Positions 3,951-32,780 of a DNA stretch of 38,438 nucleotides are shown one piece after another; within the stretch, counting starts at the first letter, position 1; each line of letters opens with the position of its first letter. The position numbers and the translations under genes are program-made. The stretch is from IMG/VR virus record IMGVR_UViG_3300028072_000159, positions 1 through 38,438 of that record; one strand, given 5' to 3'. The notes under the pieces were generated by a model. It searched no databases. It was not told the DNA's origin and saw only the letters and a list, made by a program, of their open reading frames with translations. The DNA comes from a virus. Lineage: Duplodnaviria > Caudoviricetes.

Positions 3951-4131
3951 CGTTTCCGGTACTCAATCAGCCATGAGCTGAAATCCCAAAAGCCCCCGCC
4001 TGGATCATGCGTAGGGGGAGGGGAGTGGGGCTTTCCCTGTGGCTGTGTTTTTAGCTATGGGCCGTCCCTCTGTACAAATCCTAGTTTCTCTAAGCCCTTG
4101 TGGGCACAACGTGCTAGGGTCTCGCCTGCGT

Positions 4132-6236: not shown

Positions 6237-6505
6237 TGCCCCGCTACGCCCGCGTCTACCGCTTCCGCCTCACCCACGAAGAGCACGAGCGCTTCGAGAA
6301 GGAAGCTGCAGCCCAGGAATGCTCGAAGGCAGACCTGATCCGCAGGGCGCTGGGCTGGGAAACCTGGGGGCTGCCACCTGGCGAGGAAACCGTGAAGCGC
6401 TTCGAGCGAAAGCCAACCGCCAAAGCCCCCGACCCCGAGGCCGAACCGGGCAACGCAGCCCTGGCGCGGCTCGGGGATCGTGTCCGGGAGAGTTTGGCAA
6501 GATAG
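6236..6505 (+). CDS. Ribbon-helix-helix (CopG/MobC-like) DNA-binding protein
   Basis: RVYRFRLTHEEHERFEKEAAAQECSKADLIRRAL. Confidence 0.75.
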   Translation: MPRYARVYRFRLTHEEHERFEKEAAAQECSKADLIRRALGWETWGLPPGEETVKRFERKPTAKAPDPEAEPGNAALARLGDRVRESLAR

Positions 6506-29827: not shown

Positions 29828-30076
29828 ATGAGCCCCGCTGAATCGGTTGAGGAACGGCTGCGCGCCCTGGAGCAGGCCGTCTGGGGTATACGCGGGGAGA
29901 ACGGGCTGATCCAGATCCTGAAAGGAGTGCGCGAAGACATCGGCGCCTGGCGCAAGGAAGACATCGCGCGCCGCGAAGCCTCCCAGCGGGCGCTTGCGAT
30001 CGCGCTCCTGGCCGCTACCGTATCTCTGATCGGAACCGTGGCAGCGTTGCTAACCGTCCTGACAGTGGGGCACTGA
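29828..30076 (+). CDS. Membrane protein (lysis region)
   Basis: AVWGIRGENGLI; C-terminal TM helix. Confidence 0.7.
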   Translation: MSPAESVEERLRALEQAVWGIRGENGLIQILKGVREDIGAWRKEDIARREASQRALAIALLAATVSLIGTVAALLTVLTVGH

Positions 30077-30615
30077 TGACGCCCGTAACCAGGCTGGAGC
30101 AATGGATTGCACCCAGAGTGCTCCCCTTGCTTTGCATCGTCTCCGTGCTGGTCGTGGGCGGCGGCATCGCCCTCTACGTGATCCGAGAACACGACCTGGG
30201 GCGGATCGAAAAGCTAGAGCGAGTGATCTCCTGCCAGGACACCCGCGCCTGCAGGCGCTTCATCTACCGGGCGATCCGCGACCTGATGCGCCAGCGCGAA
30301 GCCGAAGCGCACAAGGCAGGACCGCAGAGGTCAGGGGCAACGCTCAACCTCGCCCCGTTGAACGAACCCGGCCTGGCAGGGCTGATCGCCCCGTCTGGGC
30401 CTCTCGTGGCGCCTCCTGCGCCCTCGGGGTCCAAAACAAGGGCCAGAGCACCCGAGGGGACGAAACGAGCGCCCAGGCCGCACAAGGTGGCCCCTCAGCC
30501 CGAACCTGCGCCGCCTACGGACACGGCGCCGGGCAACTCGCCTGACAACGGCCACGGCGTCAAAGCCTGCGTGAACCTCGTCGCGAACCCCTGCGTCGAA
30601 GTGGGGACGCCCTAA
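30076..30615 (+). CDS. Membrane-anchored Pro-rich protein
   Basis: N-terminal TM helix, two Cys pairs, Pro-rich linker. Confidence 0.7.
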   Translation: MTPVTRLEQWIAPRVLPLLCIVSVLVVGGGIALYVIREHDLGRIEKLERVISCQDTRACRRFIYRAIRDLMRQREAEAHKAGPQRSGATLNLAPLNEPGLAGLIAPSGPLVAPPAPSGSKTRARAPEGTKRAPRPHKVAPQPEPAPPTDTAPGNSPDNGHGVKACVNLVANPCVEVGTP

Positions 30616-30877
30616 ATTTAGCCGCAGGGCTAAAGCGTTCTAAAAGCAGCGGCCCGGCGGTTGCGGCGTGTCTAACCGTGACGAATTCCGCTGCCAATTC
30701 GCACCGACCACGAGGTAGCACGTGCGGCCCCTCGCGCGCCTCTCTGACGGGCACTCACCGGTTACCCGAAGCCAATGCCACTCGGCCCGCCCGGCACCCT
30801 ACCAGAAGCTCTGACCGCCGCGCTTGCGAGGCTACTTCTACTTGCAAGCCACATGCAAAGAAAGCGAGTAGAGGAGC
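30616..30877 (+). promoter_or_regulatory. Long structured leader of the endolysin gene with alternative RBS-sequestering folds
   Basis: Hairpin 30646-30694, possible pseudoknot 30700-30734, competing stems over 30822-30877. Confidence 0.55.
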
Positions 30878-31828
30878 ATGAGATACGCCGTTCTTGACGG
30901 GTGCCCCGTCCCCAGGCCGCTGTACCCGATCCTCAAGAAGCTGAAGAAGGAGACGGGCTGCACCTACAACTCCCTCTACCGGGGCGATGACGTAGCTGGC
31001 ATCCTGCACCGCTACGGCAAGCACACCCAGCGCGAGCTCTACGAAACCCTGCCGCCGGGGATGGCCAACCCGCCAGACCGCGGCACGCACATCCTGCGCG
31101 GGGACGGCGTGGTCGGGAAGCTCTTCGCGAAGCTGAAGTTCTGGCAGTGCGGGATCGACCTGGACGATGCCTATGTGGACGACGTGATCGCGGCCGCTGC
31201 GGAGCACGGCTGGGAGCTCTACCGGCCCTACTCCTCAGGGAGCGAGTACCACCACCTGAACTTCGCCTCCAAGCCACGCCGCTGGAAGGCCTTCTTCCAT
31301 CACGTCTTCGGCCCGAAGAAAAAGCCCCACGCGGTCCACAAGCCCCGGCGGCGCAAGCCGAAGGCCAAGGCCCCCGTGCATGTCCACCCTTCGGCCCTCT
31401 CGAACCAGGGCGCCAAGTTCATTGCGGGCTTCGAGGGCTTCCGGGCCGATGCCTATTGGGACCAATGGGGCAGCGTCTGGACGATCGGGTTTGGGCATAC
31501 GGGAGGCGTCAGGCCGGGCGAGAAGGTAACCAAGGAGCAAGCGCTGAAGGTGCTGCGAGAAGACGCGGCAACCGCCGGGCAAGCGGTCAAGGATCTCGTA
31601 GACGTAGAGCTGAGCCAGAAGCAGTTCGATGCCCTCGTGTCCTTTTGCTTCAACCTCGGCGGCGGGGCACTTGCCGAATCGACGCTCCTGAAGAAGCTCA
31701 ACCGGGGCGATTACAAGGGAGCCCAGCACCAGTTCGGGCGCTGGGTACATGCAGGCGGGCAGGTGCTGCCCGGCCTGGTCAAGCGGCGAGCCGCTGAGGC
31801 TCGCCTGTTCGGAGGAGGTAGCTACTGA
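30878..31828 (+). CDS. Endolysin: M15-like Zn peptidase + GH24 phage lysozyme
   Basis: N-terminal SLYR...TQRELY...ANPPDRGTH...GID...EYHHLNF; C-terminal FEGFRADAYWD...WTIGFGHT, QFDALVSFCFNLG, GLVKRRAAE. Confidence 0.9.
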   Translation: MRYAVLDGCPVPRPLYPILKKLKKETGCTYNSLYRGDDVAGILHRYGKHTQRELYETLPPGMANPPDRGTHILRGDGVVGKLFAKLKFWQCGIDLDDAYVDDVIAAAAEHGWELYRPYSSGSEYHHLNFASKPRRWKAFFHHVFGPKKKPHAVHKPRRRKPKAKAPVHVHPSALSNQGAKFIAGFEGFRADAYWDQWGSVWTIGFGHTGGVRPGEKVTKEQALKVLREDAATAGQAVKDLVDVELSQKQFDALVSFCFNLGGGALAESTLLKKLNRGDYKGAQHQFGRWVHAGGQVLPGLVKRRAAEARLFGGGSY

Positions 31829-31992: not shown

Positions 31993-32327
31993 ACACGGCC
32001 CGCAAGGGGTCGAGCGGGGAGCTGTTCGCCGCCGCGCGCCTCGAAGCGATGGGCTACGTCGTGGCCTCTCGCCGCCACATCGGGGGGGCGGGGGACCTGC
32101 TCGCCATCCACCCCAACCCCTACCAGGAACCGCCGCTCGGGCCCTCCCTGCTCGCCGAGGTCAAGGCCCGCAAGAACCCCTATGAGGGCTTCCGCAGGGC
32201 GGACCGCCGCGAGATGTTGGACACCCCGCTGCCCCCCGGTGGCGTCCGCTACCTGGCGGTGGTCCGGGGGTCGGGCGATAACAGGAGCCTCGAATGGATC
32301 GATGAAAAAAGCTGGCCCGCCTGCTAG
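31989..32327 (+). CDS. PD-(D/E)XK nuclease, Hjc-like Holliday junction resolvase
   Basis: RKGSSGELFAAARLEAMGY...GDLLAI...LAEVKA. Confidence 0.8.
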   Translation: MNTARKGSSGELFAAARLEAMGYVVASRRHIGGAGDLLAIHPNPYQEPPLGPSLLAEVKARKNPYEGFRRADRREMLDTPLPPGGVRYLAVVRGSGDNRSLEWIDEKSWPAC

Positions 32328-32410
32328 GGTGCGGGCCACATAGAGGAGAGCCTGCACTGGTTCGTTGTGGTGTTATCCCTCTGTCTCTCCTCGCATATAG
32401 CCGTTCGAGC

Positions 32411-32450
32411 AACGACAGGCGCCTCCGCGAAAGCAGGGGCGTTTGTCGTT
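32411..32450 (+). terminator. Intrinsic terminator at the end of the late region
   Basis: AACGACAGGCGCCTC...GGGGCGTTTGTCGTT long hairpin with GAAA loop. Confidence 0.7.
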
Positions 32451-32474
32451 AAGCTGCCCACGTAGACAGGAGCG

Positions 32475-32556
32475 AGGGCCGGAGCCGTTCGCTTATTGCC
32501 CGGCAGGCGAAAGCTGAGCCGGGTGCGGGTATAAACCGCCGGGCGGTTCCGGCCCT
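32475..32556 (+). ncRNA. Candidate three-way-junction RNA
   Basis: 17-bp closing stem with G-U pairs, GAAA-capped arm and a 4-bp arm with 7-nt loop. Confidence 0.5.
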
Positions 32557-32612
32557 ACAAACTTTGACTGGTCGTGTACTCTTTCCTTGCAAATTCCTTG
32601 AGAGGAGAGAGG

Positions 32613-32780
32613 ATGCAAATGACCGATAGGCTCAAAGTCGGCGATTGGAGCCAACATCCCACCCAGGCCCAGGCCGACCGCCGCGCGGAAAGCTACGAAA
32701 GCCAAGGCTGGCTGACGCGCACTACGGACAGAGGCTACCCCCACTACCGCTACCGGGTTGAAATCGTGGGCAAGCGATGA
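32613..32780 (+). CDS. Hypothetical protein
   Basis: GAGAGGAGAGAGG RBS; ATGA overlap. Confidence 0.65.
   Translation: MQMTDRLKVGDWSQHPTQAQADRRAESYESQGWLTRTTDRGYPHYRYRVEIVGKR

Follow-up and report, generated by a model that had tools for sequence, protein, structure and literature searches.

The window analysed here is the whole stretch of 38,438 nt of a virus record, in which profile searches identified genes for an integrase, a terminase, a portal, a major head protein and an endolysin. The closest relatives of this endolysin in the genome collection are encoded in Solirubrobacterales assemblies, and a soil member of that group is therefore the likely host. The locus of interest lies on the plus strand and consists of a gene for a 179-aa protein (30076-30615), whose translation has a hydrophobic N-terminal stretch and a Pro-rich tail, a non-coding gap (30616-30877) and the endolysin gene itself (30878-31828), coding for 316 aa with an unnamed N-terminal domain followed by a phage lysozyme domain (Pfam Phage_lysozyme, E 1.7e-46; PHROG 7). 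An original prediction made from the sequence had placed a gap of about 260 nt before an endolysin gene; the gap measures 262 nt and the downstream gene is confirmed as an endolysin. Position 30878 is the sole possible start of the latter, an in-frame stop codon being located at 30869-30871. The 179-aa gene and its orthologues share the Cys-containing motif at which they end, and the gap is thus not the broken tail of this gene. A single contig of sequencing run X1, possibly the source of this DNA, spans the gap with no differences or joints; run X2 leaves it uncovered. The N-terminal 140-aa domain of the endolysin (30878-31300) has no Pfam match and is common to 63 proteins, in which it is fused to GH24, GH25 or peptidoglycan-binding domains; its invariant His, Asp and Glu-His-His residues suggest a metal-binding enzyme.

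No gene-like reading frame was detected in any frame of the gap by coding score per codon, and neither ARAGORN nor a scan for terminator-like sites found anything in it. A 67-codon frame ending in ATGA was rejected as a hidden gene, given its score of -0.61 bits per codon and the occurrence of ATGA also in one relative (L030). In all six relatives with the same two upstream genes the gap is reduced to 12-51 nt and the 262-nt stretch is missing. Three of them (L001, L030 and L048), which also share the endolysin, have gaps of 14-16 nt around a common AACCGAAGG word, and in L208-L210 gaps of 12, 15 and 51 nt are followed by other genes. The differing genes after the Pro-rich gene thus mark this site as a module boundary and the 262 nt as lineage-specific. 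Another insertion at the junction is seen in L033 (2009-2452), where an ORF that looks HNH-like by eye adjoins a related endolysin upstream. The window's segment 30766-30777 (CCGAAG..CCAATG) resembles the RBS AACCGAAGG of the relatives, as if insertions had split an ancestral site, a resemblance that may be due to chance.

Homology searches with the gap were equally negative. Comparison with 50,697 phage records by blastn gave only chance matches of 23-32 nt, and 20 related virus records, three host MAGs and 401 genomes of the class yielded short matches and no homologue; five of these matches fell below E 0.001 (23-37 nt), four of them within open high-GC3 frames. Searches of four whole related records with nhmmer and tblastx returned nothing meaningful, and four pattern scans of viral contigs retrieved 4, 43, 3 and 38 stretches, none of them alike beyond the pattern. 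Two other arrangements were noted in passing. In seven loci (L009, L012, L014, L018, L019, L049 and L208) a GCCGC/GCGGC hairpin is followed by a pyrimidine-ATA stretch and GAAAGGAG, at most 70 nt upstream of the lysin start, and in 28 of 38 loci of unrelated viral contigs (L146-L182) a perfect inverted repeat, CTACTTGC/GCAAGTAG, precedes a G run; the latter is not homologous to the gap.

The stem that had been proposed to bury the endolysin's Shine-Dalgarno (SD) sequence, pairing 30831-30845 with 30864-30877, was reproduced with 14 pairs (two of them G-U, plus one bulged A) and -18.8 kcal/mol. The anti-SD arm (30831-30845) contains a tandem CTACTT repeat at 30832-30843, and the opposite arm (30864-30877) bears AGGAG at 30872-30876. 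This SD is oddly placed, with AGGAG separated from the AUG by 1 nt and GAGG by 3 nt, compared with 4-10 in most relatives; distances of 5 and 7 are mentioned in the accessible part of PMC5303271. The stem was matched in 3 of 400 dinucleotide shuffles, and jointly with the competing hairpin described below in 2 of 400, the counts being identical under whole-gap and local shuffling. Among upstream stems pairing with an SD it ranks second over the 49 gene starts of the window, which were crudely called and some surely mis-called, and first over 27 endolysin starts, the 26 related ones having been drawn from 50 fetched loci once the window's own record, duplicates, lysozyme-domain-only matches and loci without a placeable start were dropped. 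With some 50 starts per genome, about 0.4 such stems are expected somewhere by chance. As the stem is not conserved, covariation lends it no support.

The SD-hidden form makes up 0.60-1.00 of the predicted ensemble across 5' and 3' windows containing the whole arm and, in computations on an 80-nt window, at least 0.99 from 10 to 55 C; an RNA thermometer was discarded in view of this lack of melting over the physiological range. The computed cost of opening the RBS drops from about 11 kcal/mol to 3.6-8 with the competitor arm and to about 2 without the anti-SD arm. Overall closure of the site is nonetheless ordinary, 14 of the 26 related endolysin starts being costlier to open (8.4 kcal/mol here at 60 nt upstream; range 4.1-14.5), and folding as unusual as in the best 60-nt window of the gap recurs in 18 of 640 genome tiles. 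The endolysin family shows no enrichment of RBS hairpins (p at most 0.1 in 5 of 26, median p 0.62), and hairpins between SD and coding sequence, which seemed common across the family, proved not to be enriched.

The competing stem of the original prediction, 30822-30830 with 30841-30849, exists as a hairpin of 9 bp with a 10-nt loop and -13.8 kcal/mol (30822-30849, plus strand), also readable as a DNA dyad, which could form before the SD is transcribed. It had been held to free the SD, but it occupies just the 3' five bases of the anti-SD arm and removes only 5 of the 14 pairs, while its loop still complements the SD (6 pairs at -8.0 or 9 pairs at -12.1 kcal/mol, before any pseudoknot penalty). 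Therefore, rather than an open state, the modelled hairpin is better viewed as a toehold or a source of delay. Stepwise equilibrium folding gives it a probability of 0.92-1.0 until the chain reaches 30869, the SD stem replacing it by 30875, and the direct refolding path between the two stems crosses a high saddle (+4.5 versus -13.8). What survives in silico of the proposed two-state RNA is thus an SD-burying stem with an earlier-folding competitor, but the two states are unequal (SD hidden in 60-100%, depending on the window) and not fully exclusive. A trans activator from 32340 was also considered for the loop and abandoned, ranking merely 21st among its partners.

The original prediction had further described this leader as a riboswitch-like, possibly ligand-responsive element, with a hairpin and an H-type pseudoknot upstream of the two stems. 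Taken as a whole, the gap is not more stably folded than its shuffles (z -0.94, 32 of 200), its 3' 76 nt reach z -1.18 (28 of 200) and z -2 is attained by no plus-strand window that lies entirely upstream of 30800. The pattern of the pseudoknot does occur on the plus strand at 30700-30734 (CGCAC 30700-30704, CGAGG 30711-30715, GTGCG 30722-30726, CCTCG 30730-30734), but at chance level, since 112 of 300 shuffles contain one, as do 49 of 146 genome tiles; each of its stems has a probability of at most 0.001 in nested folding. The hairpin can be drawn at 30617-30634, but its pair probability on the plus strand in full context is 0.0; the 7-bp inverted repeat behind it sits in a cluster of CTAAA/TTTAG words, of which 4 of the genome's 10 fall in 30612-30644, and might act as a weak terminator of a leftward RNA or as a protein site. 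No known aptamer is recognisable, nor had the original prediction matched one: the Rfam scan of the window gave no family at gathering score and one irrelevant match at E up to 10. The pair of stems does resemble an expression platform and there is a precedent for riboswitches in lysis modules, the available text of PMC3649979 describing two of the c-di-GMP-I class in C. difficile prophage regions that match the PhiCD119 lysis module. However, with no Rfam family, no structured aptamer region, a chance-level pseudoknot, absence from the six relatives of the same gene order and no homologue in phages, in the pattern scans of viral contigs or in the 401 genomes of the likely host class, the ligand-responsive switch is not supported, and it is extremely unlikely that 30616-30820 holds a new aptamer of a genuine riboswitch binding a ligand or protein.

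How strong structure can look in this genome is indicated by a non-coding leader at 32336-32640 (plus strand), which we used as an internal control. It folds with z -6.35 (0 of 100 shuffles), the look of strongly selected structure, so that the finding in the endolysin gap is far weaker by comparison. This leader can adopt four long stems including a three-way junction, the final stem burying the SD and AUG of a 55-aa gene at 32613; it belongs to no Rfam family and has no homologue in four related records. On these folding predictions it appears the better RNA candidate of the two. Other 60-nt tiles with z below -4.8 lie at window positions 6421, 6841, 16081 and 16501.

The comparison with T4 gene e drawn in the original prediction is apt as a working analogy, in that the SD of a lysis gene falls in a predicted helix. 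According to the accessible part of PMC3014915, the RBS structure of gene e cuts lysozyme synthesis 100-fold on long transcripts, where a helix buries the SD as is predicted here; in T4, however, late promoters inside the 5' arm give an escape and the structure is common to relatives, whereas in the window the hairpin is not conserved, is overlapped by a second one and has no convincing promoter inside it. The full T4 arrangement would require a late promoter in the 5' arm producing a short mRNA from near 30846 that lacks the anti-SD arm, just the read-through mRNA being silenced. A CTGACC motif separated by 16 nt from TACTTC (30833-30838) would indeed start RNA at the first loop bases, with an opening cost of about 2 kcal/mol, and the genome's only two TTGCAA words both lie in SD-burying arms. 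Nevertheless, the final T is missing from the box, its score is -0.6 on a host matrix, which may not fit the late promoter type of the phage, and a consensus scan found no sigma-70-type site. This arrangement is very unlikely. The two TTGCAA words, at 30842 and 32587, end pyrimidine-rich anti-SD arms and are each followed by ATGCAAA, and could be a shared regulator site. The lysis leader of mycobacteriophage Ms6 is said in the title of Garcia et al. 2002 to contain promoters and a transcription terminator. As far as that title tells, it resembles the gap in preceding the lysis genes of an actinophage as a non-coding, regulatory and structured leader, but it works by promoters and a terminator, and no terminator-like site was found in the gap.

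Regulation at the DNA level has to be weighed as well. An extended -10-like box, TGGTAGGGT, faces left at 30796-30804 on the minus strand and is one of four TGnTAGGGT sites (the others at 4112, 4367 and 32322, plus strand), which are the genome's only matches to TGnTAnnnT. The insert might be read as a small leftward unit, with RNA starting near 30788 and possibly ending at 30617-30634, that makes antisense RNA against the upstream membrane genes, the competing stem then being an operator-like dyad just upstream of the promoter. Four TGnTAGGGT sites exceed the 0.38 found on average in shuffles, none of 100 reaching that number; TGnTAnnnT occurs on the sense strand in 13 of 24 ilvB upstream regions of the host order and on the other strand in 1 of 24, and a promoter scan trained on the host places three minus-strand sites of the gap among its top 100. 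The phage also encodes an integrase, and silencing in lysogeny is therefore plausible. On the other hand, TGnTAGGGT is found in none of five related phage records, the leftward RNA carries no structure signal (z 0.33), the copy at 32322 contains a stop codon and sits in a hairpin loop, and there is no enrichment of the dyad pattern (3 matches; 16 of 100 shuffles). We consider this leftward unit unlikely; it can coexist with a hairpin acting on endolysin translation.

The anti-SD arm also lies within a putative upstream ORF of 40 codons (30775-30897, plus strand), which has an ATG start without SD, a weak -10-like TACCCG at 30763-30768 and a stop inside the endolysin gene, giving a 20-nt overlap. 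In this frame the CTACTT tandem (30832-30843) reads Leu-Leu-Leu-Leu and pairs with 30866-30876. It is tempting to speculate on a leucine attenuator, in which ribosomes stalling at four rare Leu codons would occupy the anti-SD arm, leaving the RBS of the endolysin free, and a starving host would thus be lysed sooner. A four-Leu run falls in the arm in just 31 of 3812 shuffles having a strong SD stem, CTA and CTT account for 3% and 8% of the Leu codons in the genes of this phage, and the bulge and one wobble by which the stem departs from perfect pairing are both required for the run, although the test was picked after the run had been seen. The available text of PMC1262725 describes the same pairing between an upstream Leu run and the SD of the next gene as forming the base stem in the LEU element that lies upstream of leuA in actinobacteria, and the same logic has been proven for mycobacterial poly-Cys leaders, in which a stalled ribosome would block an SD-sequestering duplex (10.1101/834739, as far as accessible).

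As a positive control we used 25 leuA-like loci of the host class (L106-L130), 23 of which have leaderless Leu-run peptides; in 10 of 23 of these leaders the minimum-energy fold pairs the Leu run to the zone of the SD. Against this reference the phage frame compares poorly. Its -10-like box (TACCCG, 6 nt from ATG) lacks the final T and scores 3.4, versus 7.4-12.3 for host leaders that had been preselected by a TANNNT filter (box 7-12 nt before a leaderless ATG). Its stop lies 17 codons past the run and inside the endolysin, whereas in host leaders 2-7 codons separate the run from the stop, which precedes the gene by 62-108 nt (23 of 23). The CCCC..GGGG motif of host leaders is absent, there is no DNA likeness, and CTA appears once in the 156 Leu codons of host leaders. 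With a modelled ribosome footprint on either of the first two Leu codons, opening costs 5.0-5.6, a gain of about 3 kcal/mol, but at the last two the cost stays at 8.2-8.3 (baseline 8.1-8.5), and evidence cited in the accessible part of PMC1262725 indicates that Leu codon changes left leuA regulation unaltered. Compared with the LEU element as described in that part, the window has an 18-nt loop only in place of the enclosed conserved pseudoknot, CUA codons, a stop far from the run, a weak promoter and an endolysin as the gene controlled; compared with the poly-Cys sORFs (10.1101/834739, same limitation), which are expressed leaderless ORFs before matching metabolic genes, its ORF is putative. 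The 40-codon ORF is not a LEU element, judging by its promoter, the position of its stop and the missing motif, and it is quite improbable that it works like one. No leucine-sensing attenuator on a phage endolysin was evident in the literature searched, which included few subscription papers and consisted partly of titles and abstract starts.

Several observations accompany this comparison. The leader peptides of 23 of the 25 Thermoleophilia-class leuA-like loci (L106-L130) are conserved and leaderless, end in LLLPR or LLLPxRGE and carry the CCCC..GGGG motif, and could serve directly as the alignment from which to model LEU elements; no comparable leader peptide was seen in the ilvB leaders of the host order. 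The sole phmmer match of the 40-aa peptide (P0064, E 2.8e-6) was dismissed, its score being the sum of five repeats, each of 20-27 bits, within a protein that is unrelated. The frame also recalls the coat-lysis arrangement of MS2, where, in the accessible text of PMC12548453, a structured lysis RBS is opened by ribosomes translating an overlapping gene that ends past the lysis start codon. In MS2, however, a genuine gene with a high level of translation supplies the upstream frame, at -50 nt, whereas the window has a putative 40-codon ORF at -20 nt, a spacing with which coupling is reported there to be much reduced.

Setting these alternatives side by side, we tentatively favour, with a probability of about 0.4, that the last 60 bases of the gap act as a ligand-independent hairpin brake keeping endolysin output low. 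The stems, their energies, the order in which they could form and their absence in relatives were computed or compared directly; the steps that follow are a model. The endolysin would be carried on a long late transcript. In relatives, where it starts 14-16 nt behind the upstream stop, its translation is probably coupled to that of the upstream gene, and the insert would abolish this coupling and leave a poorly spaced SD. On the nascent RNA the 30822-30849 hairpin would form first, with the SD briefly open; once transcribed, the SD would be bound by the loop and then captured by the stronger stem. Endolysin output would then be limited to a short window on new mRNA, or to the passage of ribosomes through one of the frames crossing the stem, and such a brake would need no metabolite. 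It would be a lineage-specific device operating in the manner of the T4 gene e or MS2 lysis hairpins, apparently gained recently at a module boundary. In holin-endolysin systems it is the holins that time lysis, and here too lysis timing is more likely set by membrane proteins than by the hairpin.

The plainest alternative to the brake is that the stretch is junction DNA which entered at the module boundary and has no RNA function, its stems being accidental. The gene after the Pro-rich gene varies, three of the six relatives carrying others, as expected of a swap point; no search returned a homologue, and the whole-gap z score and the chance expectation of such stems per genome given above speak for the same conclusion, to which it may be added that a single CTACTT duplication would account for both the long arm and the Leu run. 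Nonetheless, the one strong stem lands on an endolysin, a gene with precedents for such control, and is the strongest of the 27 endolysin starts compared. We hold an accidental origin to be somewhat unlikely.

If the Leu run were used after all, the locus would represent an amino-acid-sensing attenuator on a lysis gene, tying lysis to host starvation, and would give direct access to the way in which phages gauge the nutritional state of the host in deciding on lysis. If, as we favour, the hairpin is a plain brake, its significance is more modest, and it would add another case of phages damping their lysis enzymes through structure at the ribosome-binding site.
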